Positions 7,224 through 30,693 of a stretch of DNA of 40,633 bases are shown in pieces (the stretch's first letter is position 1; each line of letters opens with the position of its first letter). Source of the DNA: a virus. The stretch is from the UHGV virus genome UHGV-0140992; one strand, given 5' to 3'. Below the pieces are notes generated by a model, which worked only from the letters and a program-made list of their open reading frames with translations, was not told where the DNA came from and did not search any database. Position numbers and translations under genes: made by a program.

Positions 7224-7238
7224 TTACCTTTCAGGTAA
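7224..7238. promoter_or_regulatory. TTACCTTTCAGGTAA, operator-type inverted repeat (TTACC-N5-GGTAA family)
   Basis: perfect 5-bp half-sites; same 15-mer recurs at 28399; TTGACA hexamer about 20 bp upstream. Confidence 0.45.
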
Positions 7239-7560
7239 CCAAAGAGTTCATTCCGGTTACTAACCTGACTGGCTTGTCGTTAAATTGAACAGGTGGAGTG
7301 AGCTTTTATTTTGAGCAGTACGGCGTATGGCACATGCGCCGATAGCGGTCTGGATACGTTTAAGGGGCACCCTCCCTTGCTCGGGCAAACGAACCAGGTA
7401 GCCGGAATGTGCAAGTCGAGCGGTTTTATTCCGCGCACGGGGATTCACCATCCCGGCGATTCGGTGTGACGCCTCGGAAGAGACGAGGGTACAACGATGA
7501 GAGCATTTATGGAGCCGCGACAAAGTGTGGCGCCTTAACAGGCTAAGTGCTCTCAGCGTT

Positions 7561-7637
7561 GTGGCATTAGCTCAGTTGGACAGAGCAACCGCCTTCTAAG
7601 CGGTTGGTCGCAGGTTCGAATCCTGCATGCCACGCCA
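7561..7637 (+). tRNA. tRNA-Arg (anticodon TCT)
   Basis: cloverleaf folded by hand: acceptor GTGGCAT/ATGCCAC, D-arm GCTC..GAGC, anticodon stem ACCGC/GCGGT with loop CTTCTAA, T-arm GCAGG-TTCGAAT-CCTGC, discriminator G plus CCA; close to E. coli argU. Confidence 0.85.
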
Positions 7638-7680
7638 GAATCACGCCTAAGGACCGTGATGCCAGAAGTTCCAGGTGCTT

Positions 7681-7722
7681 GGCGGTGATGGTTTCCCTTG
7701 AAGGACTATCACCGCCCTTTTT
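7681..7722 (+). terminator. intrinsic terminator downstream of the tRNA
   Basis: GGCGGTGAT ... ATCACCGCC 9-bp stem followed by CTTTTT. Confidence 0.55.
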
Positions 7723-7750
7723 ACAGCAGGACGCCATTGCGATGACTTCA

Positions 7751-7770
7751 TGCTGTAAACCAGTACAGCC
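7751..7770 (+). promoter_or_regulatory. weak LexA-box-like site (CTGT-N8-ACAG)
   Basis: TGCTGTAAACCAGTACAGCC about 70 bp upstream of the 7838 ORF; spacer not AT-rich. Confidence 0.25.
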
Positions 7771-7800
7771 ACGGAAGGCATAACTCATTGCTTCCAGTTC

Positions 7801-7825
7801 GCCCGGTTCGTCCGGGCATTTTTTT
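7801..7825 (+). terminator. intrinsic terminator
   Basis: GCCCGG-ttcgt-CCGGGC followed by ATTTTTTT. Confidence 0.5.
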
Positions 7826-7837
7826 AAGGTGAAAATC

Positions 7838-8170
7838 ATGAAAGAGAAGACTGCAGCTGAGCGCTATGCCGCAGCTATCAATGCCGCGATGGCGATTGTA
7901 AACCTGCGTGAAGAGATTAAAGATCTCCTTGCAATTATCCATAACAACCTGACATGTACAGAGTTGCTTGGCGGTCAGTACAACGGTGAGGCGGTGAAGG
8001 AGGCATTTAAAAATGCCGAGGTAGGAATAATTCCAGCAAACTATGTCAAGGCTGAATGTGTGCTCCTAAAGGCACGAGTGAGTCTGCATGAAGATCCTGG
8101 TAATCTCGGTCGAACTGCAATGCGTTACGTGATAGACGAGTCGAATGCCAAACACAATCTACCGAAATAA
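7838..8170 (+). CDS. hypothetical moron protein, 111 aa (track start 7829 is GTG; ATG at 7838)
   Basis: ORF track; opposite strand to flanking terminase and portal; GGTG RBS. Confidence 0.45.
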   Translation: MKEKTAAERYAAAINAAMAIVNLREEIKDLLAIIHNNLTCTELLGGQYNGEAVKEAFKNAEVGIIPANYVKAECVLLKARVSLHEDPGNLGRTAMRYVIDESNAKHNLPK

Positions 8171-8174
8171 CACC

Positions 8175-8186
8175 GTGACATGTCAC
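8175..8186. repeat. perfect palindrome GTGACATGTCAC, copy 1 of 3
   Basis: exact 12-mer shared with 10440 and 31612; intergenic. Confidence 0.6.
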
Positions 8187-8260
8187 AAACAGACAGCCTA
8201 TGAGCTGGCTTTGTTTTATCCTCACCAGAGGATATCAACGACATTATCCCCACCAGCGGA

Positions 8261-9736
8261 TTAAGCATAGGGATCGTAATCTGTGATGGCCTTGCCTTGC
8301 TGGTTCTGCTGACCGGGAATTCGCAGACGCTTCGACACAGGGAACGCAAACGTCAGCAGTAGCGCATCGCCTTTACCAGGAGAACGCCCAAGTCGCTCTT
8401 TGATATCTTCCTTCGGTTCGATAACGATTTTACCGTCCACTCGAACTTTGTACTCTGCTGCCGACAGGTCGTCCGCTGTTTCCTGGTCATCCAGCATGCC
8501 GCCCAGCCTCAGCCATGTCTTGCATGAATTGAACATCTCCCCACGCTTGTTGAGCATCTGCGGGTCAGTAGACGCGCCACCGAACGGAACAAGTTGCCAT
8601 GTACGACCCCATCCGTCACCGATTGACTTCAGACCGGTTCCGTAACCGAAGTCGATGAACACCGCGTCAGCCTGATACTGGTCTTCAAAGTCAGCGATAC
8701 GCTTCGCCATAATCAGATCGTCGGTAGTCTTGTTGCCAGTCCACAGCACCTTACTGTGTAGCCCCTGCCGCAGGTATATCACCGCGTCATCAACGCCTGA
8801 ATATGCCGGGTCAACACCGATTATCACCGGAGCATGCGCCACCTGCGCAGCGGTTACCACCCGTTTCATTGCCTCATCAGTAAGACCGGTAGGGATAAAC
8901 TGCAATTCAGATGCATCAGGGAATATGCCGCGCACACGGATTTTAACGAAGTCGCTGTCTTCCCCGTAGTCATCAACCCATTTCTGCAACTGCTGTTTGT
9001 TAGTGCCTTCCACCGTTCGGCTGTCAATCTGCGCAGTTTTCCAGCGGTGTTTATATTTGCGGAAACATTCGCGGAAACGTCCGGTATTACGCGTCGGGTT
9101 TCCGAACGCCACCCAGATAATCTCAGTGTCTTCGTCCGTTAGTGCACCCTCGGCAACTTCCCACACCAGATCCGCAATGTTCGACGCTTCATCGAATACC
9201 ACGATGATGCGTTTGCGCTCGTTGTGTAGTCCGGCGAATGCCTCAGTGTTGTGCTCAGACCAGGGGATTGCGTCAGCTCGCCACCGCTTGTCGTGTCCAG
9301 GATCATTGCTGTACATCGCGGTAGCGGTACAGGTAAACCAGTCTTTCGTGATAGCAAGGTTCGACCACTTGATAATTTCCGGCCAGGTCTTCGTTCGTAG
9401 CTGGTTGTCGGTGTTGGCGGTCACCACGACCTTACAATCCTCGCAAGTGGACATGCCCCAGTTGATCAGCATTGAGATGAATGCGGATTTACCAATACCG
9501 TGACCCGAAGCACGTGCCAGCATAAGCGGCTGATAGCGCGTCTCTGGATTCTGCAGGTGATCACGTATCTCTCGGAACGCATCAGCCTGCCACTGACGTG
9601 GGCCGGTAGCATGTGCCAGTTCAGTCCCCTCTTCCCCCCACGGGAACGCATAGAGGGCATAGCCAAGCGGATCGTGAGTGAACCCTGCAATATCCTCGAT
9701 CAACTGCTCTTCAGGAGATAACGCTGTATCTGTCAC
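8261..9736 (-). CDS. terminase large subunit, 491 aa
   Basis: Walker-A-like GHGIGKS; size; GTG start overlapping the small-subunit stop. Confidence 0.85.
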   Translation of the reverse strand: MTDTALSPEEQLIEDIAGFTHDPLGYALYAFPWGEEGTELAHATGPRQWQADAFREIRDHLQNPETRYQPLMLARASGHGIGKSAFISMLINWGMSTCEDCKVVVTANTDNQLRTKTWPEIIKWSNLAITKDWFTCTATAMYSNDPGHDKRWRADAIPWSEHNTEAFAGLHNERKRIIVVFDEASNIADLVWEVAEGALTDEDTEIIWVAFGNPTRNTGRFRECFRKYKHRWKTAQIDSRTVEGTNKQQLQKWVDDYGEDSDFVKIRVRGIFPDASELQFIPTGLTDEAMKRVVTAAQVAHAPVIIGVDPAYSGVDDAVIYLRQGLHSKVLWTGNKTTDDLIMAKRIADFEDQYQADAVFIDFGYGTGLKSIGDGWGRTWQLVPFGGASTDPQMLNKRGEMFNSCKTWLRLGGMLDDQETADDLSAAEYKVRVDGKIVIEPKEDIKERLGRSPGKGDALLLTFAFPVSKRLRIPGQQNQQGKAITDYDPYA

Positions 9737-10329
9737 TGATTACCATCCTGACGTTCTTTGAGTCGCTTCCTGGCTGCTGCTATGCGATCAGCAATTGTCA
9801 CATTCACATTAACATCCAGACGTTCTTTGAACGCGTTGACATCAACATGCTTACCAATCAGCTCAAGGTTCTTCACCTTGTCAGGCCATTTAATTTTTTT
9901 GAGGATTGTCTCTATCGAATCCTCGTTCATGTTCATGATGGTCGATGACAGATCAAAGCCACTAAGCGTAGTGCGCCAGATTTTCGGCCACTCACGGATT
10001 GGTTTAAGGCTCCCATCGTCGTTGAGGATGTCGATCACGTCCATCTGGTCGATCTCCACCAGGCGCATGAGAACGTAATCAGCACTGACGCGCATTCGTT
10101 TGTTGCGCTCCTCCATCAACTCGGCAATCCGTTTTTGAATGCGTTCATCGCGCATCATGACACTGGCTTTAACTGCCGCTGTATTTGGGGAGAATCCTGC
10201 GTTAATCGCTGCCTGAGTCTGGTTTTCAGGCGTTTTGATGTATGACTGGCAATAAGCCTCCTGCATTGCTGTTAGTGGCTTAAATTGCGTTGATTTGCGT
10301 TTATAGGTTTTAGGTTCAGCAGGCATCAT
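9733..10329 (-). CDS. terminase small subunit (track ORF to 10407; likely start MMPAEPK near 10329)
   Basis: basic/helical protein immediately upstream of TerL; the N-terminal extension in the track is encoded by a DNA tandem repeat. Confidence 0.65.
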   Translation of the reverse strand: MMPAEPKTYKRKSTQFKPLTAMQEAYCQSYIKTPENQTQAAINAGFSPNTAAVKASVMMRDERIQKRIAELMEERNKRMRVSADYVLMRLVEIDQMDVIDILNDDGSLKPIREWPKIWRTTLSGFDLSSTIMNMNEDSIETILKKIKWPDKVKNLELIGKHVDVNAFKERLDVNVNVTIADRIAAARKRLKERQDGNQ

Positions 10330-10336
10330 AACCACC

Positions 10337-10365
10337 GTGGTAATAGTTACCGTTGTGGTAATAGT
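10337..10365. promoter_or_regulatory. tandem GTGGTAATAGT repeat containing operator-type site TTACCGTTGTGGTAA (10347..10361)
   Basis: two 11-bp direct repeats 18 bp apart just upstream of the terminase operon; perfect TTACC-N5-GGTAA. Confidence 0.45.
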
Positions 10366-10439: not shown

Positions 10440-10451
10440 GTGACATGTCAC
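10440..10451. repeat. perfect palindrome GTGACATGTCAC, copy 2 of 3
   Basis: exact 12-mer; overlaps the stop of the 115-aa ORF, upstream of the terminase operon. Confidence 0.6.
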
Positions 10452-10795
10452 ACTATTAATTTCGTTTCATGCCAGCCTTTAGTCACCCAGCATTGCGAGT
10501 CACCATTACACGGGCATGAATTAACTGGAACTCTCTCGCCGCACTTACCGCAACATTTTCTGCTGATCGATTTTATACGCCCGCGCACGCGTGCATCATC
10601 CTGGCGGATCAGTAACGCGATGTACTCGGCCATTTCATAGGGATCGCGACCAGGGCGCCGGGCGGCGCAGTTCCGCGCCAGCATTTCCTGCTCCTGCTTA
10701 TCCAGCACCAGTTCAATTTTGCGCTCACCGGCGGCGGACTGCCGAGCGCGCTGCGCGGCTTTGCGTTCTGCGGGGGATTTAGCCACGAATCGCAC
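10448..10795 (-). CDS. hypothetical protein with C-terminal Cys cluster, 115 aa
   Basis: ORF track; CCGKCGERVPVNSCPC motif; last gene before the late operon. Confidence 0.45.
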   Translation of the reverse strand: MRFVAKSPAERKAAQRARQSAAGERKIELVLDKQEQEMLARNCAARRPGRDPYEMAEYIALLIRQDDARVRGRIKSISRKCCGKCGERVPVNSCPCNGDSQCWVTKGWHETKLIV

Positions 10796-12183: not shown

Positions 12184-12714
12184 TCACTCTCCTTTGATGC
12201 GAATGCCAGTGGTACTCATTCTCCTGATTTCCCAGAGCACACGAGGAACACCACCGTTTCCGACCGGATCGCGTTTACTCCGCAGGGCGACGCTTGATTC
12301 CGCCCAGCTTTTTCTTGGAGGAAGCTCTTTCACACGAACAAAACCAGCTGCGCGAAGAGATGCTCCTGATTCATCTGCCCGGGTGTACGTAATACAACGT
12401 TGATAACCCATAGCTTTTGCTGCCCGCCAGACAGCACCATAAAGCGCGCTGTTAGCGTTGCGTTCTCCTGTGGTACATGTGCGATTTACTTCAAGCGTTA
12501 ATCCATCGTCCAAATGTCGTGCAACAGGTCGACCGGCTGTCGCCACACCTATCAATTCTCCGGCATCATTTCTCAGACCAATGCTGAATTTATGCCCCAC
12601 CGGGGGTTTATTGTGTCGGTGATGTCTGGATATAAATGCCTTCGCAACACGAAGAGTAACCGGTGAAATCTGCACTCTCACTCTCCTTTGATACCAATGT
12701 TTACAGTCTGGCAA
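12184..12714 (-). CDS. hypothetical protein, 176 aa (possible acetyltransferase-like fold)
   Basis: ORF track; weak GNAT-like motif; C-terminus IRIKGE matches the neighbouring Ea22-like gene. Confidence 0.4.
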   Translation of the reverse strand: MPDCKHWYQRRVRVQISPVTLRVAKAFISRHHRHNKPPVGHKFSIGLRNDAGELIGVATAGRPVARHLDDGLTLEVNRTCTTGERNANSALYGAVWRAAKAMGYQRCITYTRADESGASLRAAGFVRVKELPPRKSWAESSVALRSKRDPVGNGGVPRVLWEIRRMSTTGIRIKGE

Positions 12715-14069: not shown

Positions 14070-14414
14070 TCAGAACTCTTCGATGTTCCAGCCACCACCT
14101 GCTTTCTTTGGTTTAACCGTTACCCCGATGATTCGGAACGGATACTGATCTGCGGCGACTTTGGTTTTCACCCTGGCGTCGTCGGTCCAGAAACCTTTCA
14201 CTTCGTGCAGTTCCATCTCTCCGGTGGCGAGCATCACAGCGAAATCGGGCGTATAGAACGTGTTGTCAGCTAACCGCAGCTTGATACCCTCGAATCGATA
14301 CCAGGCGATTTCCCCTGCACGTTTACGCTGCTCAAGGTGCTGGCAATACGCAGATTCTGTTTTGTTCATCTGGCCTGTTTTGAGTCGACCAAGAGCCTGT
14401 ATCTGTTTTCTCAT
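14070..14414 (-). CDS. DUF1064-type phage protein, 114 aa
   Basis: resembles DUF1064 family (recall). Confidence 0.5.
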   Translation of the reverse strand: MRKQIQALGRLKTGQMNKTESAYCQHLEQRKRAGEIAWYRFEGIKLRLADNTFYTPDFAVMLATGEMELHEVKGFWTDDARVKTKVAADQYPFRIIGVTVKPKKAGGGWNIEEF

Positions 14415-14417
14415 GAT

Positions 14418-14494
14418 TTACCTCTAAGGTAATTGAAAACCATATAAGACACGAAATCAATAGAGTTTAGAATATTTTGTTACCTTGTAGGTAA
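14418..14494. promoter_or_regulatory. two operator-type sites TTACCTCTAAGGTAA (14418..14432) and TTACCTTGTAGGTAA (14480..14494)
   Basis: perfect half-sites, 62 bp apart, between the P-like gene end and the DUF1064 gene start. Confidence 0.45.
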
Positions 14495-16303: not shown

Positions 16304-16403
16304 TTTTTCCGCCCCTTTTTGTTATTGATATTGACTATTTTGCACAATTGGAAAATTTGATCAACCAGATTTGGTTTTTTATTACCCTTAAGGTGCGAAT
16401 AGA

Positions 16404-16451: not shown

Positions 16452-16682
16452 TCATGAGTAGAAGAAGTATGCCAGTTCTGCTTTTGAGCGCAGCCATTGT
16501 CTTGTTTTACAGGCTTTAAAAAGCCCATTCATCAATACTTTACCTGGCATTTTGCGCTTGCCTGTTAAGTGAGTCTGGATATAGTGACTCGTCGTTCCGG
16601 CTTCCTGTGCGAAGGCTTCACGCTCATCCGGAGTAAGTGCAAGCCAGTGCTTTTTGAAATCGAAATGTCCGTTATCGCTCAT
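16452..16682 (-). CDS. Cro-like regulator, 76 aa
   Basis: small protein transcribed divergently from the repressor across the operator cluster. Confidence 0.55.
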   Translation of the reverse strand: MSDNGHFDFKKHWLALTPDEREAFAQEAGTTSHYIQTHLTGKRKMPGKVLMNGLFKACKTRQWLRSKAELAYFFYS

Positions 16683-16718: not shown

Positions 16719-16781
16719 TCACCCATAAGGTAACAAAAATCAAGGATAGTTACCTATGAGGTGCATTTACCTGTTGGGTAA
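16719..16781. promoter_or_regulatory. OR-like operator cluster: TCACCCATAAGGTAA (16719), TTACCTATGAGGTGC (16750), TTACCTGTTGGGTAA (16767)
   Basis: three 15-bp inverted repeats at 31- and 17-bp spacing between divergent Cro-like and CI-like genes. Confidence 0.6.
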
Positions 16782-16836: not shown

Positions 16837-17421
16837 ATGAAAAGTATCCAGGACGTCCGCAGGCAAAATCTCAACGACTTGATCGACCGTGAATTCAATG
16901 GTGTTCAGACGCGGATGGCAGAAAAACTTGGAACTCAGGCAAATCTGGTAAACCGCTGGGCTCTTGGCAAGAAGGTTATCGGCGACCAGGTTGCACGAAA
17001 AATTGAAGCTGCCGCCAATAAACCCCGTAACTGGCTTGATATTGATCGTTCGCTTTCTCAGGAGGGTTTTCAGCCTGTCGGCCCGAGCGATATAGGTCAG
17101 CTGGCGGCTCACAACCTGGAACGCTGGATGAGCGAAAGCCGCGACCTTTCAACACAGGGAAAACTTCACCGCGCATCCGGCGTCGCCCAGGTGACAATCA
17201 GCCGCCTGTTAAACAATGAGGTCAGCGTTTCCATTTCCACCCTGGAGAATGTTGCATCCGCATTCGGGCGTCACGGATATGAACTACTGATTCACCCGCA
17301 CGACCCTGCGACTATCAACTATGACCGCTCACGCTACGCATTGTTACCCGAAACCGAGAAAGCAAAGATCGAAAGTTACATTGAATTTGTCATCAACCAG
17401 AACGAAAAAAGCAAACAATAA
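16837..17421 (+). CDS. CI-like immunity repressor, 194 aa, two HTH-like segments, no S24 peptidase domain
   Basis: divergent from the Cro-like gene across the operators; HTH-type N-terminus; no Ala-Gly / GDSM / Lys autocleavage motifs seen. Confidence 0.7.
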   Translation: MKSIQDVRRQNLNDLIDREFNGVQTRMAEKLGTQANLVNRWALGKKVIGDQVARKIEAAANKPRNWLDIDRSLSQEGFQPVGPSDIGQLAAHNLERWMSESRDLSTQGKLHRASGVAQVTISRLLNNEVSVSISTLENVASAFGRHGYELLIHPHDPATINYDRSRYALLPETEKAKIESYIEFVINQNEKSKQ

Positions 17422-17442
17422 AACTATAGTTTTCAGTAAGTA

Positions 17443-17467
17443 AGCCGCCTCATGGCGGCTTTTTTAT
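17443..17467 (+). terminator. intrinsic terminator of the repressor gene
   Basis: agccgcc-tcat-ggcggct followed by TTTTTTATT. Confidence 0.6.
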
Positions 17468-17478: not shown

Positions 17479-17555
17479 TTACCTTACGGGTAATTTTTTT
17501 AACTCATATCTATTGACACCAAACCAAATAAGCATAATTATTACCCCAACGGTAA
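17479..17555. promoter_or_regulatory. OL-like operators TTACCTTACGGGTAA (17479) and TTACCCCAACGGTAA (17541) around a TTGACA hexamer
   Basis: two perfect sites flanking TTGACA at 17513, upstream of the plus-strand operon. Confidence 0.55.
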
Positions 17556-18934: not shown

Positions 18935-19957
18935 ATGTCTATCAATGCACTTAAGGCAGCGGCTACCGGTAACCAAGTTGCACATCATAATGAGAAACCA
19001 ACAACTCTGGCCGGACTTCTGGCAGACCCAAAAATTAAAGCTCAGATGGCTTTGGCACTTCCAAAGCACATGACAGCAGACCGTCTGGCGCGCATAGCAA
19101 CCACAGAGATCAGAAAGGTTCCAAAACTTGCATCATGCGACCAAGCCAGCTTCCTGGGGGCAATTATGCAATGTGCCCAATTGGGTCTTGAACCAGGCGG
19201 AGCTCTTGGACACGCTTACCTGATACCGTTCGACAAACGCCAGAAAGTAAATGGAAGATGGGAAACCGTATCTACAGAAGCACAGCTGATTATCGGCTAT
19301 CGCGGAATGATTGACCTTGCCCGCCGCTCTGGGCAGATCCTGAGTATCTCGGCTCGTACCGTACATACAAACGACAAATTCAGCTACTCATACGGCCTGG
19401 AAGAAACGCTCGAGCATTTACCTTGCGAAACAGGTGACCGCGGAGAATTAACGCACGTTTACGCCGTTGCACGACTGAAAGATGGCGGAGTCCAATTTGA
19501 AGTTATGAGCCGGGCAGACGTTGAGAAAGTTCGTGCACTGAGCAAAGCCGGTAGCAGTGGCCCATGGGTTGATCACTTCGATGAGATGGCTAAAAAAACA
19601 GTAATTCGCCGACTGTTCAAATATCTTCCTGTTTCTATTGAAATGCAGAAGGCTGTTGTTATGGATGAGCGCGCTGAAGCTGGACTTAGCCAAGATAACG
19701 CAGCTGTTATCACTGGTGAATATTCCGTAGTTGACGATGAGCGTCAACACCTGTCGCCAATTTCAGATTCAGAACGAGAAGAAGCTCGAGAATATATCAT
19801 CGCGATACTTAATAGCCTGGATCCATCTGCTGAAGATGCAAAAACGATGTTCAAGCGCGCTGAAAATGAAATTAACACCATGGCTGAAAAGCTCGGTGAT
19901 GAATATCACCAAAAATTCATGATGACGCTTAACGATATGCGTCCAGAATTCGAGTAA
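18935..19957 (+). CDS. recT: RecT-family single-strand annealing protein, 340 aa
   Basis: RecT-like motifs (GLEPGGALGHAYLIPF); classic exonuclease-RecT pair. Confidence 0.85.
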   Translation: MSINALKAAATGNQVAHHNEKPTTLAGLLADPKIKAQMALALPKHMTADRLARIATTEIRKVPKLASCDQASFLGAIMQCAQLGLEPGGALGHAYLIPFDKRQKVNGRWETVSTEAQLIIGYRGMIDLARRSGQILSISARTVHTNDKFSYSYGLEETLEHLPCETGDRGELTHVYAVARLKDGGVQFEVMSRADVEKVRALSKAGSSGPWVDHFDEMAKKTVIRRLFKYLPVSIEMQKAVVMDERAEAGLSQDNAAVITGEYSVVDDERQHLSPISDSEREEAREYIIAILNSLDPSAEDAKTMFKRAENEINTMAEKLGDEYHQKFMMTLNDMRPEFE

Positions 19958-22753: not shown

Positions 22754-22795
22754 AATTCACCCGTATAGAAACCATTTTCATGACGGTATGAGAGT

Positions 22796-22810
22796 ATACC
22801 TTTAAGGTAA
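22796..22810. promoter_or_regulatory. operator-type site ATACCTTTAAGGTAA (one mismatch)
   Basis: about 45 bp upstream of the integrase start. Confidence 0.4.
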
Positions 22811-23043
22811 TACCGTCACCTGTACCGACGAAAAATATGGTGTATAGTGAATAGAAATGAATACATAAAAACAAAAACCCTCTGTTTTTACAGAGGGTTA
22901 AATTAGTATCTGAATAGGAATGAGTTGCTATGAGTTAGCTGTTAATCATTCCCACTCAATTATTTACGATAACCATAACCAATTGAGTGATAACATTTTT
23001 CCAAATCTCAATTTTTCCCGTACCGTTTTATATACCGTCACCG
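22811..23043. other. candidate attP region with direct repeats TACCGTCACC (about 22811 and 23034) and GTACCG
   Basis: non-coding region next to int; repeated 10-mers about 220 bp apart; 9-bp inverted repeat cactcaatt ... aattgagtg around 22950-22990. Confidence 0.3.
22866..22899 (-). terminator. intrinsic terminator at the end of the late/lysis operon
   Basis: aaccctctg-ttttta-cagagggtt 9-bp stem followed by TTTTTGTTTTT on the minus strand. Confidence 0.6.
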
Positions 23044-24868: not shown

Positions 24869-25149
24869 ACTTTCTCCTGTTTACTATCTATAAGCCAGTC
24901 AATTATTGATGACTAAACCCGCATAGTAAACCATATATGAATCATTATTGTTCCATATCATATATCTCAATAAAAGTACTAATGATTTTACAGAACGAGC
25001 CAGCAGAGTGGGGGCAGTTGTACAGGAACCATAGACTTAATTTTGTATTTAATAATGCTATGGTGTAATAAACCTGAACATGTATTTAAAATACGTACTG
25101 ATTCATGATAGAATTCAAAGATAACTTTTCACAAACTCCGTTTTTGATA

Positions 25150-25178
25150 CCCGCAAAATATTGCGGGCTTTTTTTTAA
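25150..25178 (+). terminator. plus-strand intrinsic terminator abutting the tailspike stop
   Basis: cccgcaa-aata-ttgcggg followed by CTTTTTTTTAA; U-run only on the plus strand. Confidence 0.45.
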
Positions 25179-28100
25179 CGTTCTTCCAGAGACTGAATCC
25201 GCTCTTTTATCTTATCCATTTCTCTGCGCTGCCATGCTGCCTCGATATAGAATAAGAGATCAGGTCTGACCCCCCATCTAGATCCTGCTGGCGTTATTTC
25301 AACGCGCTCAATGATGTCTTCCATTACCATCACTGGATTATCATCCTCATCAACAATGATGCTCCCGTCATTATCAGTCAGCGGCATTTCCCTTTGGCCA
25401 GTAATGACGTCATCATATACTGCGGGATAATCGTCATAGCAAAGAAAGGCATAGCGGCATGTTGTGCTTTCTTCTTCCATGAGTCCGTGAGAAATAAGAA
25501 CATCACGAAGTTGCTGCGCGATTACACCATGATGTATCCTCGCCCCTTCTTCCCCCTTTATAGCGACAGCGTTCAGCCATTTATAAGCGATATACCTGAC
25601 GTCACCCCAGGCATCCAGCAATGCTTCGTCAGGAGAGACCGGCTCTGTCTTTAATGTTCCGTCACTGGTAACCACAGGATTGGAGCCAAGATAAACTGTC
25701 GAGAACCTGTTTCCCGGACCACCAAGAGCATTTACATTATCAAGATAAGGTTTAACATCTCCGTTCTCAAAAAGATGTTCGAGTGCGTTATATACCGCGC
25801 GACGTGGAGTACTGCTTCCGGAACCATGCAACGTTATCATTGCACCATCTGCTGAAGACGTTATTTCACCGCCGCTAACGATTAATCTCTGAGCGGTAAC
25901 ATCATCAGACGGTACTTTCTTCGCAATAATGGCGTAATTACCCTCAAGTTTGACTTCCGCGCGAACTTGTCCTGATGTACCTGCATGGACAGTCAGTGAC
26001 TGGACGGCAACATCATCTGTGAAATCAACGGGTACAGGAACCGTCCTCACGCCTGACGTCGACATAAAAGTAGGAAGCGTTCTGTTAGGAGTGGCTCCGT
26101 AGACAAAATCCCTTGAAACAAATTCTTCCTGTTTAATTTTCACCCTGAAACAATACAAATCAGCCGGGTGACCATCGTGAACATAAGGATATTTTCTGTT
26201 GTTATCCCCTATGCTCCATGGGTTTAGAAAGTCTTCCCCACCGAAAATGTAGTACAGCCAGTTGTCTTTGATACAAACTGAACCAACACCAACTGCAGAG
26301 TTAACTATTCCGCCCTGATAAATCTGATCAGTAACATTAACCCACTCTACATTATCCAGACTCCACTCATTGACGTTAACTCTGGTCATAAATGTTCTTG
26401 GATAATTTCCTGCATAACGGTTATCAGGTTCTCCTCCTTCCCACTCACCAAATGCGCGCTCACTGCCAAAAATAATCAGCTCATCGCCAACTTTGGCAAA
26501 AGGAAGGTTTGAGTGATGAACATTATTTGGGAAGCGAAGAGAATTCCATGATGTACCTAAATCAGAGCTTCTGTGCAATGAACTACCGGGTTGAGTACTT
26601 AATGTCCCCCTGGTCGTCAGATACAGAATGCCATCATAATATTTTACACATGGCTCAGATGCATTCGCCTCATATTCTGCAGGTATGCGTCTGCGAACAA
26701 AGCTACCAGGAGAACCGAAAGCATCAGAGAAATAGAGTATCCCAAGCTCGCGTGGACCAATATCACCATTATGGTAGCCAACAGCAAAACTGTTATCGCT
26801 AATCGTCGCAAAACTGTGAATCTCAGTAACAGGAGTGCTTCCGTCAACAAAAGAAGGAATAGTTCCAAGACTGGTTTTTCTCCATGGTGACGAGTGAAAT
26901 GATGTACCAAAACTCCAGTATCTACCCTCGTTATTCTGATCCACATCCTGGGTATTTTGCGTCGTAACTGTAAAAGTATTTTTATCAATAACAGTAGTCA
27001 CCGTCATATTCCCGGTAACACCTGTAACACCAGAGTTTGAGAAGTTGACAAAATCACCAGCAAATAATCCGTGATCAGTAATGCGAATATAAGCGACTTG
27101 CTGATTTGCTGCTTTCGTTATACCACCATAAGCGCGAAGGCTGCGACTCATTGGGCGATCCCACAACTCTGCAACCTGCAGTTTATTTCCGCTCACGGTC
27201 CGCGTCTCAATTACAGCAAAAAGGCGATTTCTGACAACCCCCATACTCATGCAGTGATAGTTAACTGTGGGATAGTTTTCATGTAAATCTGTAAGCCATT
27301 CCGGCGTTGTCCAGGTCTTCCCGTCATCTCCTGAGCGAACCCATGCAACATGGAGGTTATTTACACCATGGCGGTCTCCAGCCATAAAAGGCGCATAGAT
27401 GACATTGTCATATACAAACGTTTTATCCTGCGTCCAGGCGTTGTACCACGGTGTATCTGTAATTTTAAATAACTCTCCCTGGATAAAATCTTCAGAAGCA
27501 TAAAAAAGAGGCTGGCCCGGTATTCTCTCAAATAAAAAACGAGCATTTTTAAATCGACTGACATCCGGAAGAGTTGATACTTTAAAAGTAAGCCCTAATC
27601 CGTCAATTTTATAACCTGGAGATGAGGCTTCAAGGCACGCGCTTATTGCAGTGGAATCGTCATTTATACCATCACCAACAGCTCCAAAATCTTTGGGGCT
27701 AATAGCATCACGCATTTTATCCTGGAACGTTCGGTACACAGCCCCAGAACCATACTGAATAAACCAACCAAAACCACCAACAACCCCGGCGATTGCAGCA
27801 TCGACATAATTACGCATTGAGCGATTATTTACAGCGTCCTGCTCAAATGATGGATCTGCAAGGTTAGAAATTTTGTTTTGCTTTGCATCGTAATATTTTG
27901 CAAGCAAAGATGGTTTCATCAATGCACGTCTGAACCACCCAAAACATTGCTGGATCAGCATCGTCAGGTAGTCAAAGGCATCTTCATGCACTTCGGGGAA
28001 AAATTTTCCCTGATTGCGAAGGTCTGTCTCCTGCACTACATCAAGCACACGATCTATCGTAATTCGCCATCCAGTAGCAAGCGGAGACGGAAGAACCACA

Positions 28101-28294
28101 GAACCGCCACTATAAGTGCCCGCCCCAGTTACCGTATAACCGGTATCCAGAACCAATTCTGTTACGTTTCCGTTCAGGTCAGACACCTGAACAACCAGGT
28201 CTGATTTTCTGAAAATTCGAAAAGTATACGGAAACGATGTCGTAACGCCGTTACCGGTGTATTCGTTGTGGTCAACTTCGGTTGAGACCGTCAT
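25175..28294 (-). CDS. tailspike endo-N-acetylneuraminidase (K1 endosialidase) with C-terminal intramolecular chaperone domain, 1039 aa
   Basis: long blocks match recalled phage K1F endosialidase (FERIPGQPLFYASEDFIQGELFKITDTPWYNAW ... EWLTDLHENYPTVNYHCMSMGV); chaperone-domain motifs (LGSNPVVTS, TEPV, DAWGDV) near the C-terminus. Confidence 0.85.
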   Translation of the reverse strand: MTVSTEVDHNEYTGNGVTTSFPYTFRIFRKSDLVVQVSDLNGNVTELVLDTGYTVTGAGTYSGGSVVLPSPLATGWRITIDRVLDVVQETDLRNQGKFFPEVHEDAFDYLTMLIQQCFGWFRRALMKPSLLAKYYDAKQNKISNLADPSFEQDAVNNRSMRNYVDAAIAGVVGGFGWFIQYGSGAVYRTFQDKMRDAISPKDFGAVGDGINDDSTAISACLEASSPGYKIDGLGLTFKVSTLPDVSRFKNARFLFERIPGQPLFYASEDFIQGELFKITDTPWYNAWTQDKTFVYDNVIYAPFMAGDRHGVNNLHVAWVRSGDDGKTWTTPEWLTDLHENYPTVNYHCMSMGVVRNRLFAVIETRTVSGNKLQVAELWDRPMSRSLRAYGGITKAANQQVAYIRITDHGLFAGDFVNFSNSGVTGVTGNMTVTTVIDKNTFTVTTQNTQDVDQNNEGRYWSFGTSFHSSPWRKTSLGTIPSFVDGSTPVTEIHSFATISDNSFAVGYHNGDIGPRELGILYFSDAFGSPGSFVRRRIPAEYEANASEPCVKYYDGILYLTTRGTLSTQPGSSLHRSSDLGTSWNSLRFPNNVHHSNLPFAKVGDELIIFGSERAFGEWEGGEPDNRYAGNYPRTFMTRVNVNEWSLDNVEWVNVTDQIYQGGIVNSAVGVGSVCIKDNWLYYIFGGEDFLNPWSIGDNNRKYPYVHDGHPADLYCFRVKIKQEEFVSRDFVYGATPNRTLPTFMSTSGVRTVPVPVDFTDDVAVQSLTVHAGTSGQVRAEVKLEGNYAIIAKKVPSDDVTAQRLIVSGGEITSSADGAMITLHGSGSSTPRRAVYNALEHLFENGDVKPYLDNVNALGGPGNRFSTVYLGSNPVVTSDGTLKTEPVSPDEALLDAWGDVRYIAYKWLNAVAIKGEEGARIHHGVIAQQLRDVLISHGLMEEESTTCRYAFLCYDDYPAVYDDVITGQREMPLTDNDGSIIVDEDDNPVMVMEDIIERVEITPAGSRWGVRPDLLFYIEAAWQRREMDKIKERIQSLEER

Positions 28295-28398
28295 GTTAAA
28301 TCTCCAGATAGTCGCAGCACCCGTTGCGCCGCATATCTGGTTATTCTATTACCTGGAAAACCACATATGGATAGAAAGGATGTAAATACGAATAGATA

Positions 28399-28413
28399 TT
28401 ACCTTTCAGGTAA
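28399..28413. promoter_or_regulatory. operator-type site TTACCTTTCAGGTAA
   Basis: identical 15-mer to 7224; in the divergent region between tailspike and the LexA-box gene. Confidence 0.45.
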
Positions 28414-28450
28414 TTTGCAAAACGTGCTGGATAGCAAACAAATTATTTGA

Positions 28451-28470
28451 TACTGTATAAATATACAGTT
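28451..28470. promoter_or_regulatory. LexA (SOS) box TACTGTATAAATATACAGTT
   Basis: 18 of 20 match to consensus TACTGTATATATATACAGTA, intact CTGT-N8-ACAG, overlaps a TATAAAT -10-like element about 20 bp before the downstream ATG. Confidence 0.65.
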
Positions 28471-28489
28471 ATTGCATGGAGAAGATAAG

Positions 28490-28747
28490 ATGCAGCAGTA
28501 TCACTATCCACTGGAAGACGGATTTACCGAAAGGATTCACACGCCGGGAGGCGTCAGGTCACTGGTGGAGGGATCGCACTTGATGAAATTACTCCGGGAT
28601 CTCGATAAGGATGGATTTAATGTCGATGGCCCACTTGCCGAACTGACTGCACTGATTAACTACGTCACCAGCTCACAGATGTCTATGCAGGATCTGCAAA
28701 CACATCTCGACTATTGTGCCGAACAATTACGAAAACAAACCCGGTAA
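28490..28747 (+). CDS. small antirepressor-like protein, 85 aa (track 28472 is TTG; ATG at 28490)
   Basis: GGAGAAG RBS; LexA box and operator upstream; about 45 percent identical by eye to the C-terminal domain of the Bro-N protein at 29896..30606. Confidence 0.55.
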   Translation: MQQYHYPLEDGFTERIHTPGGVRSLVEGSHLMKLLRDLDKDGFNVDGPLAELTALINYVTSSQMSMQDLQTHLDYCAEQLRKQTR

Positions 28748-28769
28748 ATTTAAAGGCCGCAAGAGCGGC

Positions 28770-29498
28770 CTATCGTTTCGCTTTGTGCTCGTCCCAGCAC
28801 GTTTTGCACCATGCCATTAAGCCGTCCGCATTTTGATTATTAGGGTAAAAGCTGGTCCGTTTTCTGCGGACATTACAAATTGGGCACCACTTCATATGGC
28901 GTGTATTCTTTGGGCCATCGAGACACCTTGCACACCACTTAGTCAATCCATCTGGATTTTTTGACGATTTCCGGAATTTGTCATATGGAAGGTTTATTCT
29001 GCATCGCAAACACTGCTTGCGGCCACTTGAAACTCTGTTAGCTGATTCTTCTTTTGGCGGCGATACAGAAGGTATTCTTGCTGGCTCTGATACTGCCTGA
29101 GGTGCTTTTTTAGATGACTGAGACGATATGTCATCACCAGGGAATCTTCCATGATATGCCGGACGCATTGATACTCCAGGTGGAAGCTCAGCTGTAAACG
29201 GCTTTGGCTGAATCAGTTGCCTCTCTTTTGCTAACTCCTGCTGTTTACAATATGTCTGGATTACCGCACTATCATAAGCAGGAGGTGCGGAAATATTAGG
29301 CGCATTACCTCCAGTTTTTTGAAACTGAGTAGAGGTGTGTTCTATCACCTGTGTACGATTAATCGTTATCTCCCCATCTTCGGTCTTTATCGTTTTGTTA
29401 TGATTAACGACCGTACGATCAGAGATCTTAGTCTTGTTCTGGTTGATAACGTAAATAATCACCGCAACCACACCAACAACTATCCAGAAAACTTCCAT
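28770..29498 (-). CDS. membrane-anchored protein with duplicated CxxC zinc-ribbon module, 242 aa
   Basis: N-terminal TM helix; two copies of CxxC-x(20)-DGL-xx-WC-xx-C; GAGGAA RBS. Confidence 0.5.
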   Translation of the reverse strand: MEVFWIVVGVVAVIIYVINQNKTKISDRTVVNHNKTIKTEDGEITINRTQVIEHTSTQFQKTGGNAPNISAPPAYDSAVIQTYCKQQELAKERQLIQPKPFTAELPPGVSMRPAYHGRFPGDDISSQSSKKAPQAVSEPARIPSVSPPKEESANRVSSGRKQCLRCRINLPYDKFRKSSKNPDGLTKWCARCLDGPKNTRHMKWCPICNVRRKRTSFYPNNQNADGLMAWCKTCWDEHKAKR

Positions 29499-29518
29499 TG
29501 CTTTTCCTCACAATAACA

Positions 29519-29626
29519 TTACCTTAAAGGTAATATCTTGCTTTCAGGTGATCAAGCGTTAAACGCCACCAACCAAATACGGTTGATTTTGATATTTCTC
29601 CGCGTTTATCATTACCTTTGCGGTAA
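29519..29626. promoter_or_regulatory. operator-type sites TTACCTTAAAGGTAA (29519..29533) and TTACCTTTGCGGTAA (29612..29626)
   Basis: perfect half-sites between the divergent 242-aa gene and the Bro-N gene. Confidence 0.45.
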
Positions 29627-29639
29627 ATTTACATCGCAC

Positions 29640-29880
29640 TCCTCTTGTGCCATAGTAATCGGGCACTGGCAAAATCCAGTGCCGGGATTGGCGTCCCGGG
29701 TTACTAAGTGGCGCATACCACGCCAGACGTGGTTTTTTTATGCGTTAAGCACAGCTATATCCGAATTATGGTGGGCTGGGCAGGGGTCCGAAAGGACGCC
29801 GGTACCACTTAGGCCGGTACGCCAACCTTGTCCAGTTCACCACCAGTAATTGGCGTTGCGGTGGTGATTAAAATCACTAA
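29640..29880 (+). other. highly structured non-coding leader upstream of the Bro-N gene
   Basis: nested inverted repeats GGCACTGG-caaaat-CCAGTGCC and CCGGGA-ttggcg-TCCCGG; CCACG-ccaga-CGTGG followed by TTTTTTTA; direct repeat GCCGGTAC. Confidence 0.3.
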
Positions 29881-29895
29881 GTGGAGATAACCACC

Positions 29896-30606
29896 ATGGC
29901 TAATGCTCAAACTTCCATCTTCAAATTTGAATCTGTTAACCCTATCCGTTCCATCATTATCGATGGCCAACCATGGTTTGTAGCCCAAGACGTTTGTAGT
30001 GCGCTGCGTATCCAAAACGTCACCCAAGCACTTGAAAAACTGGATGATGATGAAAGGTCTATGTTCAACATAGGGCATGAACATCGTGCAATTTTTGACA
30101 GCCGAGTAAAAGAGATCAACATCATCTCCGAGTCAGGCCTCTACACACTGATCCTCCGCTGCCGCGACGCAGTGACACCAGGCACTATCCCCTACCGCTT
30201 TCGTAAATGGGTTACGGGTGAGGTTCTTCCTCAGATCCGCCGCACCGGAAGCTACATTAAAAACTCGCTCCCGCAGGAAGAACGCATAAAGATGGTTGCC
30301 GACCAGGTGGCCAACGCCACGGCGTCAGCAGTAATGCAGGCGATGAAGATAGAGAACAAAACCTACAGCGCCCCACTGAATCCCGGCTACCGCAGCCTGA
30401 TTCATTCGCCGTCTGGTGTTCTCGGCCTGACGGAGAACTCACTGCTGATGAATCTGCTGAACCAGTTACAGGACGACGGGCACGACGTATCGGGCGCGGC
30501 GGCGGAGCTGACCACCATGTTCTGCTACATCGTCGGTGTGAGCAAATGCCTGCGTGATATCCAGACCCACGCGGAATACATCAACGACAAGGCAGGGTTC
30601 TTCTGA
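29896..30606 (+). CDS. Bro-N domain antirepressor-like protein, 236 aa (ATG at 29896)
   Basis: N-terminal Bro-N-type motifs (FKFESVNPIRSIIIDGQPWFVAQDVCSAL); C-terminal domain paralogous to the 28490 gene. Confidence 0.65.
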   Translation: MANAQTSIFKFESVNPIRSIIIDGQPWFVAQDVCSALRIQNVTQALEKLDDDERSMFNIGHEHRAIFDSRVKEINIISESGLYTLILRCRDAVTPGTIPYRFRKWVTGEVLPQIRRTGSYIKNSLPQEERIKMVADQVANATASAVMQAMKIENKTYSAPLNPGYRSLIHSPSGVLGLTENSLLMNLLNQLQDDGHDVSGAAAELTTMFCYIVGVSKCLRDIQTHAEYINDKAGFF

Positions 30607-30613
30607 CGGGCGG

Positions 30614-30640
30614 TGGCACAGGGATGTGCCTTTAAATAAT
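30614..30640 (+). terminator. weak intrinsic terminator after the Bro-N gene
   Basis: ggcaca-ggga-tgtgcc followed by TTTAAATAATT. Confidence 0.3.
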
Positions 30641-30678
30641 TCTGTACAGATTGCAGACTGTGGGTGAATAGCGTACTA

Positions 30679-30693
30679 TTACCTTAAAGGTAA
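30679..30693. promoter_or_regulatory. operator-type site TTACCTTAAAGGTAA
   Basis: identical to 29519; immediately before AGGAGG and the ATG at 30706. Confidence 0.45.

Follow-up and report, generated by a model that had tools for sequence, protein, structure and literature searches.

The window, that is, the whole stretch of DNA that was analysed (40,633 nucleotides), is a complete Uetakevirus genome with 98% identity to phages ZX5 and phiV10. The 15-bp motif TTACC-N5-GGTAA occurs in 11 perfect copies (7224, 10347, 14418, 14480, 16767, 17479, 17541, 28399, 29519, 29612 and 30679), each of which was found by a motif scan exactly where an earlier, sequence-only reading had placed it; dinucleotide shuffles gave a mean of 0.03 copies, and 0 of 100 shuffles reached 11. 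The full palindrome is 17 bp long (ATTACC-N5-GGTAAT), with an A/T-rich N5. Five imperfect sites (10329, 16382, 16719, 16750 and 22796) were also observed, the positions of which are conserved in relatives. The earlier list was right that 16719 and 22796 carry one mismatch apiece; it was mistaken about 16750 and 16382, which have two apiece, confined to one half-site that reads GGTGC in both, and 10329, 18 bp away from 10347 and with a single mismatch, was not on it.

When a PWM was trained solely on sites from other genomes, with the maxima of 200 shuffles as control, 13 sites of the window outscored at least 99.5% of the shuffle maxima. The motif frequency is far above the dinucleotide-shuffled background, and the sites are recovered independently of the window. 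Weak scores were obtained for 16382 (p ~0.04), 10329 (p ~0.085) and 16750 (p ~0.29), whose positions are nevertheless conserved in relatives. All 16 sites are free of coding overlap, as had been claimed, in a window of which 8.1% is intergenic, and they are dispersed far outside OR and OL. The further claim that they precede almost every operon is generally borne out, the exception being the lysis cassette, in front of which this phage has none that can be recognised. Promoters are given here as consensus matches, i.e., as predictions; no recognisable core promoter is overlapped by the sites at 28399, 17479, 14480 and 16382.

Immunity region

The divergent rep and Cro-position genes are separated by a stretch with three sites, and two more flank PL, just past the rep terminator. 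The predicted features of the region are as follows.

16382..16396: weak operator past the post-cro terminator (16430-16411), two mismatches
16455..16682, minus strand: Cro-position protein, 76 aa, divergent from rep, matching phrog_35 "transcriptional repressor"
16736-16708, minus strand: PR promoter, TTGTTA-17-TATTAT, with the OR1-type operator centred at about -25
16719..16733: OR1-type operator, TCACC...GGTAA, one mismatch, within the PR core promoter
16750..16764: OR2-type weak operator, TTACC...GGTGC, two mismatches
16767..16781: OR3-type operator, perfect, closest to rep
16837..17421, plus strand: prophage repressor Rep, 194 aa, full-length match to the SPC32H repressor PDB 5D50
17479..17493: distal OL operator, perfect, ending 19 nt upstream of the PL -35 (17513)
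17513..17541, plus strand: PL promoter, TTGACA-17-AATTAT
17541..17555: proximal OL operator, perfect, its first T being the last PL -10 base, centred at about +1

The match of Rep to the crystallised SPC32H protein (PDB 5D50) extends over residues 1-190 (E=3.5e-42). The protein has an N-terminal HTH domain (DNA-binding), a middle HTH_3-like dimerisation domain (Pfam HTH_3 on residues 106-147) and a C-terminal tetramerisation/Ant-binding domain, and a Pfam scan gave no peptidase S24 domain. Throughout the genus, its recognition helix keeps the stretch NLVNRW unchanged, while the remainder of Rep falls to 43% identity. In the Cro-position protein, the HTH-like stretch AGTTSHYIQ.HLT is invariant in five genomes. 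The 17 bp from 16750 to 16767 match the spacing of a perfect pair in epsilon15 (33341/33358). The OL operators are 62 bp apart, start to start, and a spacing of 61-63 bp is kept in all relatives; the PL -35 is conserved in five of six aligned genomes and reads TTGACT in Tyrion. Counterparts of 16382 with one mismatch are present in phiV10, Tyrion, BUCT711 and L007, 326-370 bp from the OR1-type site.

Early, terminase and accessory transcription units

Operators and promoters of the terminase and nin-type blocks were assigned as follows.

10329..10343: second terS operator, one mismatch, 2 nt from the terS ATG
10347..10361: terminase-promoter operator, perfect, centred at about +1 of the extended -10 promoter
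10369-10361, minus strand: terminase extended -10 promoter, TGgTACTAT
14418..14432: proximal nin-block operator, perfect, also covering the Shine-Dalgarno of the DUF1064 gene (ATG at 14414)
14432..14460, minus strand: inferred nin-block promoter, TTGATT-17-TTCAAT
14480..14494: distal nin-block operator, perfect, 62 bp from the proximal one

The nin-block promoter was placed by anchored alignments, in the same register as PL; a strict promoter scan passed over it, its -10 having no A at position 2. The 18-bp pair at terS is conserved in phiV10, epsilon15, Tyrion, L009 and L012. Terminators are predicted ahead of the terS block (10398-10381), the replication block (16430-16411) and PL (17442-17461), and inspection by eye shows a GC hairpin with a trailing T-run ahead of the nin-block operators. 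Because terminators precede most internal operator units, each block seems to need its own promoter. An N- or Q-type antiterminator, the absence of which had been remarked on before, was not found in Pfam and PHROG scans of the early proteins submitted.

Further sites are associated with two antirepressor genes and with accessory genes.

28399..28413: tailspike/ant operator, perfect, in the divergent region, centred at about -57 of the LexA-controlled ant promoter
28453..28468: LexA box, CTGTATAAATATACAG, near-consensus, covering the ant promoter -10
28490..28747, plus strand: small antirepressor Ant, 85 aa, 88% identical to SPC32H "ant", matching phrog_450
29518-29510, minus strand: extended -10 promoter of a 242-aa accessory gene (28770-29498), TGtTATTGT
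29519..29533: operator of the 242-aa gene, perfect, in the promoter spacer
29612..29626: operator of the isrK/C4/Bro-N antirepressor module, perfect, centred at +1 of TTGATT-18-TATCAT
29663..29739, plus strand: isrK-family small RNA with intrinsic terminator, Rfam RF01394, 67.7 bits (gathering 50)
29764..29847, plus strand: C4 antisense RNA of the P1/P7 immI type, Rfam RF01695, 66 bits (gathering 45)
29896..30606, plus strand: second antirepressor, Bro-N plus Ant-like C-terminal domain (Pfam Bro-N; phrog_130, phrog_450)
30679..30693: operator before a 55-aa gene, perfect, its first T ending a TACTAT -10-like hexamer

A second promoter, TTTACA-17-CATAGT, has its -35 (29628) one base downstream of the 29612 operator, and the operator at 30679 is separated by 12 nt from the 55-aa gene that follows it (30706). 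The C-terminus of the Bro-N antirepressor is 40% identical to the small Ant, and isrK is also present in phiV10 and Tyrion. Two geometries recur: the operator begins on the last -10 base at PL, the nin block, terminase, the upstream promoter of the isrK/C4/antirepressor module and the 55-aa gene, where bound Rep would occlude the transcription start; at PR and the 242-aa gene, it lies in the promoter spacer.

Late genes and the int-proximal site

7172..7182, minus strand: candidate late-promoter element before gp3, CATATGTGGTT, running on as TGGTT-N5-GGTAA (7176-7162)
7202..7230, plus strand: promoter facing away from gp3, TTGACA-17-TACCTT, with a perfect -35 and its -10 overlapped by the 7224 operator
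7224..7238: gp3/tRNA-moron operator, perfect, between the head operon and the tRNA/moron block
22796..22810: doubtful int-upstream operator, ATACC...GGTAA, one mismatch
24929..24939, minus strand: candidate late-promoter element before the lysis cassette, CATATATGGTT, with no operator close by in this phage
28359..28369, minus strand: candidate late-promoter element before the tailspike gene, running on as TGGTT-N5-GGTAA-TAGAAT

An operator in front of integrase, as had been proposed, is ambiguous. At the spot corresponding to 22796, the epsilon15 record has an integrase/RNase III site in place of a repressor site, every genome shares the one mismatch, and the site is embedded in a bigger inverted repeat (22782-22817); its PWM score is high all the same.

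The promoter that the 7224 operator overlaps faces away from the head genes, towards tRNA-Arg (7561-7637) and an ORF at 7829-8170. Five of six genomes have TTGACA as the -35 of this promoter; BUCT711 has TTGACC. The element CATATRTGGTT, with a -10-like hexamer and no -35, is conserved in the head, tailspike and lysis regions in the orientation of the genes. At head and tailspike, its distance downstream of the operator is 50-62 bp (the 28399 operator being ~50 bp upstream of the tailspike motif); it is operator-less at lysis, where a recognisable operator was found neither in this phage nor in ZX5; one is present in phiV10, epsilon15, SPC32H and Tyrion. From the sequence context, a late promoter that depends on an activator seems likelier than simple occlusion by the repressor. 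A separate late element, together with the downstream offset from the operator or the absence of one, points to an additional late regulator.

It had been suggested that the late genes are directly repressor-controlled. This is supported for terminase, whose promoter is overlapped by an operator centred at about +1, and not for head, tailspike and lysis, which have the separate late element. An arrangement in which all operons, late morphogenesis and lysis included, are switched directly and solely by the repressor, as had been supposed for P1, with no late activator or antiterminator, would agree with the terminators (at the nin block, the hairpin read by eye) that precede most internal operator/promoter units and with the lack of N/Q-type proteins in the scans of submitted early proteins. 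Overexpression of Rep in ZX5 likewise reduced holin and endolysin transcripts by >99.9% (PMC9782041), an indirect effect, lytic growth being blocked overall. Such an arrangement is considered unlikely in view of the CATATRTGGTT elements, the loss of the lysis operator here and in ZX5, the direction of the promoter under the 7224 operator and the presence of conserved, uncharacterised candidate regulators, namely an RHH-like/Cys-rich protein just upstream of terS, a PerC-like activator and an AlpA-like protein. The late genes of P1 themselves run through the activator Lpa (PMC8546580).

Relatives and the identity of the binding protein

The dispersed operator set is already annotated as repressor-binding in the epsilon15/phiV10/SPC32H group. 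In the record of epsilon15, the type phage (GenBank AY150271.2 / RefSeq NC_004775.2), seven identical palindromes were marked protein_bind "repressor" by the depositors, and the annotated sites are orthologous to those before terS (10347; epsilon15 12-27), gp3 (7224; 2931-2947), the tail fibre (28399; 19895-19911) and the RuvC/nin block, and to OL. The genome of epsilon15 is said to have been described by Kropinski et al. in 2007. The two phages share genus, gene order, palindrome and dispersed positions, although the epsilon15 repressor is just 43% identical to Rep. OR and the proximal nin operator are not among the seven marked sites. Compared with epsilon15, the window carries additional operators in front of accessory genes (29519, 29612 and 30679) and a C4/isrK antirepressor module, but no site at the lysis cassette. 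In 12 of 12 other phages and prophages examined that encode a full-length Rep (identity 41-99.5%; Escherichia, Salmonella, Enterobacter, Klebsiella, Citrobacter, Erwinia, Superficieibacter and Scandinavium), the motif occurred together with the OR triple and the pairs spaced 61-63 bp apart; motif and layout were missing from five loci sharing just the Rep N-terminal domain (35-40% identity).

SPC32H resembles the window in its full-length Rep homolog, its Ant (88% identical), the LexA box at the ant promoter, and the operator motif and layout. It differs in that the window has a second antirepressor module under C4/isrK RNAs, no Bro-N being annotated in SPC32H. A Rep-Ant lytic switch has reportedly been worked out in SPC32H by Kim & Ryu in 2013 and Kim et al. 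in 2016 (PDB 5D50/5D4Z). In secondary accounts, SPC32H Rep is a tetramer on palindromic DNA sites that is released by the antirepressor Ant (PMC9638917; PMC9986798). Homology, prior annotation and layout make it very probable that the sites are operators of the Uetakevirus prophage repressor Rep, encoded at 16837-17421, which is the protein proposed earlier. The expected binding of Rep to exactly TTACC-N5-GGTAA rests on database annotation and secondary citations.

Conservation alone does not separate Rep, the Cro-like protein or both as the binder. The Cro-position protein may share operators with Rep, and joint binding is not truly a rival reading. That the 76-aa protein is the main or sole binder, exerting a global shut-off in the lytic phase while Rep binds elsewhere, is very improbable. 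Its HTH-like stretch is invariant, its identity of 58-84% (Rep, 43-78%) parallels the invariant half-site, and it matches a phrog_35 "transcriptional repressor"; against this, the lysogeny repressor is the binder named by the epsilon15 depositors, Rep would be left with no other repeated palindrome, the tetramer reported for SPC32H Rep (PMC9638917) fits paired operators, and a narrower-range Cro is a known pattern, that of the telomere phage phiKO2 taking just one of five CB operators (PMC4997575). That the sites are not operators at all, being promoter/activator elements or module-boundary linkers aiding recombination among mosaic phages, is scarcely credible: similarity between genomes does often start or stop at an operator (at gp3, upstream unrelated and downstream conserved) and each extra accessory gene in the window brings its own site, but placement on or just after the -10 is a repressing, not an activating, geometry, the clustering at OR/OL beside the repressor gene, the HTH-type palindromes and the constant 62-bp pairs are left unexplained, and a role in recombination could be a by-product of repeats.

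With Rep as the binder, the analogy to P1 that had been drawn holds functionally, in that one repressor serves many operators scattered genome-wide, and is strengthened by the isrK/C4 module: as in P1 immI (c4 RNA-icd-ant), a repressor operator and a C4-family antisense RNA stand at the start of an antirepressor operon. It does not extend to membership, since P1 operators are asymmetric 17-mers (ATTGCTCTAATAAATTT) rather than palindromes, and Rep matched just SPC32H Rep and generic HTH proteins in structure and Pfam scans. In P1, moreover, C1, with 22 dispersed operators, acts on the late promoters by way of their activator Lpa, which is under C1 control (PMC8546580). The phiKO2 CB repressor, like Rep, is without autocleavage motifs (PMC4997575). 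Lambda CI/Cro and N15/phiKO2 CB share with the window the OR triple between divergent repressor and cro, OL, and cooperative or looping behaviour; their five to six operators are limited to the immunity/replication regions and their late genes depend on Q antitermination, whereas the strong sites of the window number at least 13 and are spread over the genome, and the scans of the submitted early proteins gave no Q homolog. Many copies of a repressor site, mostly in short intergenic gaps, are also known as the stoperators of mycobacteriophages L5/Bxb1 and the inverted repeats of Streptomyces phage phiC31. Stoperators are asymmetric and orientation-dependent and block elongation. The sites of the window are palindromic and on or beside promoters, and the repressor families are not known to be related.

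Each 17-bp palindrome would be held by a pair of Rep N-terminal HTH domains, and a Rep tetramer, by analogy with SPC32H, could hold two operators together, which would account for the constant 61-63 bp spacing of the operators on either side of PL and of the nin-block promoter. In the lysogen, Rep would silence every early and accessory unit separately. Induction, judged from the homology to SPC32H, would proceed by antirepression: DNA damage would remove LexA from 28453-28468, small Ant would be made, and Ant would strip Rep off the DNA. The second, P1-immI-like antirepressor module (operator, isrK, C4 RNA, Bro-N::Ant) would also be controlled by Rep, and the head, tailspike and lysis genes, tentatively, probably need an additional late activator.

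Dispersed operators and their counterparts in related phages

An 823-aa tail gene is split over both ends of the window (1-1427 and 39592-40633); hence, the sequence opens inside a gene and is a complete, circularly permuted phage genome, and it carries no host flank. Over most of its length, it shares 98% identity with the Escherichia phages vB_EcoP_ZX5 (ZX5), HEMP4, TL-2011b and phiV10, all four of which belong to the genus Uetakevirus (epsilon15-like podoviruses). The sequence-only reading had listed 11 perfect copies of the palindrome TTACC-N5-GGTAA (sites are named here by their start coordinates). All of them were recovered with every coordinate exact, and dinucleotide-preserving shuffles gave a mean of 0.03 copies, none of 100 reaching 11. 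Its imperfect sites held up in part; 16719 and 22796 do carry a single mismatch, but 16750 and 16382 carry two each, both lying within one half-site that reads GGTGC in each case. Allowing one mismatch added 10329, 16719 and 22796 to the perfect set, the first of which had been overlooked. A position weight matrix trained on sites of other genomes only was then run over the window, with the maxima of 200 shuffles as background (a scan with a matrix built from the window's own sites had been proposed in the note); 13 window sites beat at least 99.5% of the shuffle maxima. By score alone, 16382 (p ~0.04), 10329 (p ~0.085) and 16750 (p ~0.29) are weak. The sites had also been described as all intergenic, and none of the 16 overlaps coding sequence on a gene map transferred from ZX5 and complemented by our own ORF inspection, with an intergenic share of only 8.1% of the window.

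The symmetrised consensus of the sites, A-TTACC-W-rich-GGTAA-T, is identical to the annotated sites of phage epsilon15, and the 17-bp palindromic operator ATTACC-N5-GGTAAT is present in the window (11 perfect cores). Seven features of the type 'protein_bind / repressor / lysogeny', with the sequence ATTACC-N5-GGTAAT, are entered for epsilon15 in both RefSeq and the GenBank record of the depositors. One each lies before terS (terminase block), gp3 (head operon), the tail fibre gene and the RuvC/nin-type block, with the window orthologues 10347, 7224, 28399 and 14480, respectively, and three lie at OL, where the window has 17479/17541. Perfect cores number 11 in epsilon15, 8 in phiV10, 10 in ZX5, 10 in SPC32H, 9 in Tyrion and 9 in the Klebsiella phage BUCT711. 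Anchored alignments of six genomes, together with site tables, showed that the operators before terS, gp3, the tail fibre/ant region and the nin-type block are orthologous, and the following layout was found.

Operator layout conserved among the relatives
terS: 18-bp pair
gp3: one site
ant/tailspike gap: one site
before the lysis genes: one site
before int: variant site
OL: pair
OR: triple, with spacings of 17 and 30/31 bp
past the post-cro terminator: weak site
before the nin-type block: pair

Two other explanations of the repeated palindrome were dismissed. Terminators or RNA hairpins were ruled out by inspection, since the arms are 5 bp long and the 5-nt loop is A/T-rich. Two of 45 terminator-like predictions touch a motif site, and the strong GC-rich ones all lie elsewhere; one of the two (17571-17538, 3 G-C pairs in 13) lies over 17541, and the last 3 nt of the other (29570-29585) fall within the TTGATT -35 hexamer of a promoter, outside the operator. 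A role as restriction or methylation target was rejected because the sites are purely intergenic and the motif has no GATC, which would be the expected target of the phage's adenine methylase.

In the literature searched, nothing relevant was found for the motif string as a repressor or operator sequence. The dispersed operator set is already recorded in the public annotation of the type phage epsilon15, and the window is near-identical to published phages. The mechanism has been supplied by the work on Rep and Ant of SPC32H. The main value of the analysis is as a check on a by-eye reading, in which a genuine repressor regulon was correctly recovered. With 16 sites in the window, against seven in the epsilon15 annotation and none in those of phiV10 and ZX5, the full list could help to annotate phiV10-like prophages better; these prophages are common in E. 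coli and have served as reporter or typing phages.

The repressor and the geometry of its probable operators

The immunity region encodes two candidate binders of these sites:
16837-17421, + strand, 194-aa prophage repressor (Rep)
16455-16682, - strand, 76-aa protein in the cro position

Rep matches the crystallised repressor of Salmonella phage SPC32H (PDB 5D50) over its full length (residues 1-190, E=3.5e-42, phmmer), and SPC32H Rep was its only structural relative found. It has an HTH_3-type middle domain (Pfam matches HTH_3/HTH_26) and no peptidase S24 autocleavage domain. In the secondary literature, SPC32H Rep is described as having an N-terminal DNA-binding, a middle dimerisation and a C-terminal tetramerisation domain, and as a tetramer on palindromic sites that is dismantled by the antirepressor Ant (PMC9638917; PMC9986798). 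Rep identity drops to 43% across the genus, and the stretch NLVNRW of the N-terminal domain is invariant in an alignment with four genus members, which fits the invariant half-site. An HTH-like stretch of the cro-position protein is also invariant across the genus; conservation therefore cannot tell which of the two is the binder, and the cro-position protein may share the sites with Rep. In the telomere phage phiKO2, Cro bound to only one of the CB operators (PMC4997575).

When bacterial genomes were scanned with the Rep alignment, two kinds of locus were obtained. The motif, an OR cluster and operator pairs 61-63 bp apart occur in every one of the six prophages whose Rep is full-length (41-74% identity; from five further genera). 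In the window, the OR cluster between the divergent rep and cro-position genes consists of 16719, 16750 and 16767, and the pair downstream of rep of 17479 and 17541; this layout is repeated in 12 other genomes or prophages. Five loci that share the N-terminal domain only (35-40% identity; Paraburkholderia, Hydrogenovibrio and Thiomicrospira) have no TTACC-N5-GGTAA sites, and no obvious alternative repeated palindrome was seen in them, so that no switch of specificity could be traced. By every criterion that can be tested at the sequence level, the locus belongs to the epsilon15/SPC32H-type Rep-operator-Ant system.

The position of the operators relative to early and accessory promoters was analysed by site-anchored alignments, a register scan and coordinate checks.

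Promoter elements abutting operators
17513-17541, PL (promoter at OL), TTGACA-17-AATTAT; the last T of the -10 is the first T of operator 17541, centred at about +1
14460-14432, nin-block promoter, TTGATT-17-TTCAAT; geometry identical to PL, operators 14418 and 14480
10369-10361, terminase promoter, extended -10 TGgTACTAT; the -10 ends on the first T of the operator
29583-29612, promoter before the isrK/C4 module, TTGATT-18-TATCAT; the -10 ends on the first T of the operator
30674-30679, -10-like hexamer TACTAT before the 55-aa gene; ends on the first T of the operator

The proximal nin-block operator, 14418, in addition includes the Shine-Dalgarno sequence from which the first gene would be translated. 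At PR, the promoter at OR (TTGTTA-17-TATTAT), and at the promoter of a 242-aa gene (TGtTATTGT), the operator lies within the spacer. The operators at these promoters are thus placed in what are predicted to be occluding positions. At OL, the second operator (17479) is located 62 bp upstream of 17541. One Rep tetramer would hold two operators on the same helix face, and the 61-63 bp pairing, constant in every genome, fits this view; the constant 62-bp pairs give a concrete, testable prediction of how tetrameric Rep engages DNA.

Terminators lie upstream of internal operator/promoter units at 10398-10381, 16430-16411 and 17442-17461, and a GC hairpin followed by a T-run was read by eye upstream of 14480. 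As most internal units are preceded by terminators, each seems to be transcribed from a promoter of its own that is repressed separately. The 242-aa accessory gene (28770-29498, - strand; phrog_6762) encodes a C-terminal HNH/Lar-like zinc-finger region and is missing in ZX5. Its extended -10 promoter contains an operator, 29519, that serves this gene alone, and accessory genes here therefore seem to bring or acquire Rep operators. A gene of the nin-type block (12184-12714, - strand) matches PHROG 1384, 'Mom-like DNA modification protein'.

Operators had been placed in front of almost every operon, which was borne out at the dispersed sites but not at the lysis genes; an operator is present there in phiV10, epsilon15, SPC32H and Tyrion, and none was found in the window, the aligned position being degenerate both here and in ZX5. 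In the same region (24869-25177), an orphan + strand terminator (25150-25167) follows the tailspike stop; in relatives, this spot is occupied by an O-antigen-modifying gene of opposite orientation, and the stretch resembles the remnant of a moron that was lost or replaced. Site 22796 had been read as an operator upstream of integrase. It does match the motif with one mismatch, but the corresponding epsilon15 annotation is an integrase/RNase III site and not a repressor site. The same half-site mismatch (GGTAT) occurs in every genome and also creates a TATACT -10-like hexamer, and in the window the site lies inside a longer inverted repeat (22782-22817, GACGGTAT...ATACCGTC).

Antirepression and the comparison with phage P1

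Two putative antirepression circuits, LexA-Ant and C4 RNA-Bro::Ant, stand side by side in the window:
28453-28468, near-consensus LexA box CTGTATAAATATACAG, over the -10 of the ant promoter
28490-28747, + strand, 85-aa antirepressor gene, 88% identical to the SPC32H gene annotated ant
29663-29739, + strand, isrK-family sRNA (Rfam, above gathering score)
29764-29847, + strand, C4 antisense RNA (Rfam, above gathering score)
29896-30606, + strand, Bro-N antirepressor fusion (Bro-N::Ant) whose C-terminal ~80 residues are homologous to SPC32H-type Ant (phrog_450)

Operator 28399 is located at about -57 of the ant promoter. At the sequence level, the LexA box, the Ant homologue and the lack of an S24 domain in Rep point to a non-cleavable repressor, with induction predicted to run through a small LexA-controlled antirepressor. 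Kim and Ryu reportedly found in 2013 that SPC32H Rep is not cleaved and is inactivated by LexA-controlled Ant. The second module has the order operator 29612, isrK, C4 RNA and Bro-N::Ant, and the C-terminus of the fusion is 40% identical to the window's own Ant; the isrK/C4 pair is also found in phiV10 and Tyrion and is absent from epsilon15.

A likeness to the C1 operators of phage P1 had been suggested. It holds for one repressor acting at many scattered operators, but P1 operators are asymmetric, with the 17-bp consensus ATTGCTCTAATAAATTT, and C1 acts on the late genes indirectly via the activator Lpa (PMC8546580). The window sites, on the other hand, are perfect palindromes of two 5-bp half-sites. 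In P1 immI, c4 RNA limits antirepressor synthesis (PMC8546580); the window similarly has a repressor operator (29612) followed by a C4 antisense RNA and an antirepressor gene. As regards late control, it has a candidate late motif and a candidate regulator (10451-10795) within the repressor-controlled nin operon. It was concluded that the window works like the P1 C1 regulon but does not belong with it, on account of operator symmetry. Mycobacteriophage stoperators are asymmetric, have one orientation relative to transcription and act on elongation. The window sites differ from these also, being palindromic and, in several cases, located at -10/+1 positions.

Candidate late promoters and activators

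The late genes had been regarded as directly repressor-controlled. Operators do adjoin gp3 and the tailspike gene, but a separate late element is present and an extra activator is probably needed. A + strand promoter, TTGACA-17-TACCTT (7202-7230), has its -10 inside operator 7224. Its -35 is perfect; five of six genomes have TTGACA at this position, and the remaining one has TTGACC. This promoter points away from gp3, toward tRNA-Arg (7561-7637) and an ORF at 7829-8170. The tRNA gene, a tRNA-Arg(TCT) on the + strand, is antiparallel to the late genes and begins about 320 nt downstream of the promoter.

The late element, CATATRTGGTT, has three perfect copies in the window, all on the late-gene strand:
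7172-7182, - strand, before gp3
24929-24939, - strand, before the lysis genes
28359-28369, - strand, before the tailspike gene

Each of the six genomes compared has it in front of the head, lysis and tailspike genes; a hand estimate, made with no tool, puts the chance expectation at ~0.04 perfect copies. In the relatives, it is followed by a -10-like hexamer (TAGAAT, TAATTT or TATGAT) and has no -35. At gp3 and the tailspike gene, it is found 50-62 bp downstream of the operators, and a one-mismatch copy occurs within the nin-block promoter (14438-14448). These arrangements make CATATRTGGTT a candidate activator-dependent late promoter. At gp3 and the tailspike gene, the element runs on into a 'hybrid' site, TGGTT-N5-GGTAA, with one perfect operator half-site (- strand, 7162-7176 and 28349-28363, respectively). 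These hybrid sites occupy the core of the two late regions, the first 62 bp downstream of 7224 and the second 50 bp downstream of 28399. A 7-bp inverted repeat, TTAAATT-GGTAAT-AATTTAA (7154-7173), has the gp3 half-site at its centre.

The need for an extra activator was considered probable because of the direction of the promoter at 7224, the shared late element, the lost lysis operator and the precedent of Lpa in P1. Three candidates are present, namely the product of 10451-10795, a PerC-like protein and an AlpA-like protein. Gene 10451-10795 (- strand) is the last of the early-right operon and lies just before the terS terminator/promoter. The N-terminal part of its product (112-115 aa) is RHH-like, and the C-terminus is conserved and rich in Cys (CGKCG...SCPC...CW). 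The protein matches phrog_536, 'transcriptional regulator', and gave no sequence match in Pfam, NCBIfam or PDB. It has 748 homologs, mostly from Enterobacteriaceae, and the 120 of them that were listed are all unnamed, hypothetical or uncharacterised and have no Pfam domain. The AlphaFold2 model has a pLDDT of 67, and no PDB entry matched it below E=4 in Foldseek.

An unlikely scheme would combine these elements: the Rep tetramer would repress the head and tailspike late promoters at a distance by bridging 7224 and 28399 to the hybrid sites, and the 10451-10795 protein would activate the CATATRTGGTT promoters. Of all the findings, only the candidate late-promoter motif and the unnamed regulator encoded upstream of terS might yield something new; if the scheme were true, the Uetakeviruses would have a late-activator family that is new, together with a repressor/anti-activation loop.
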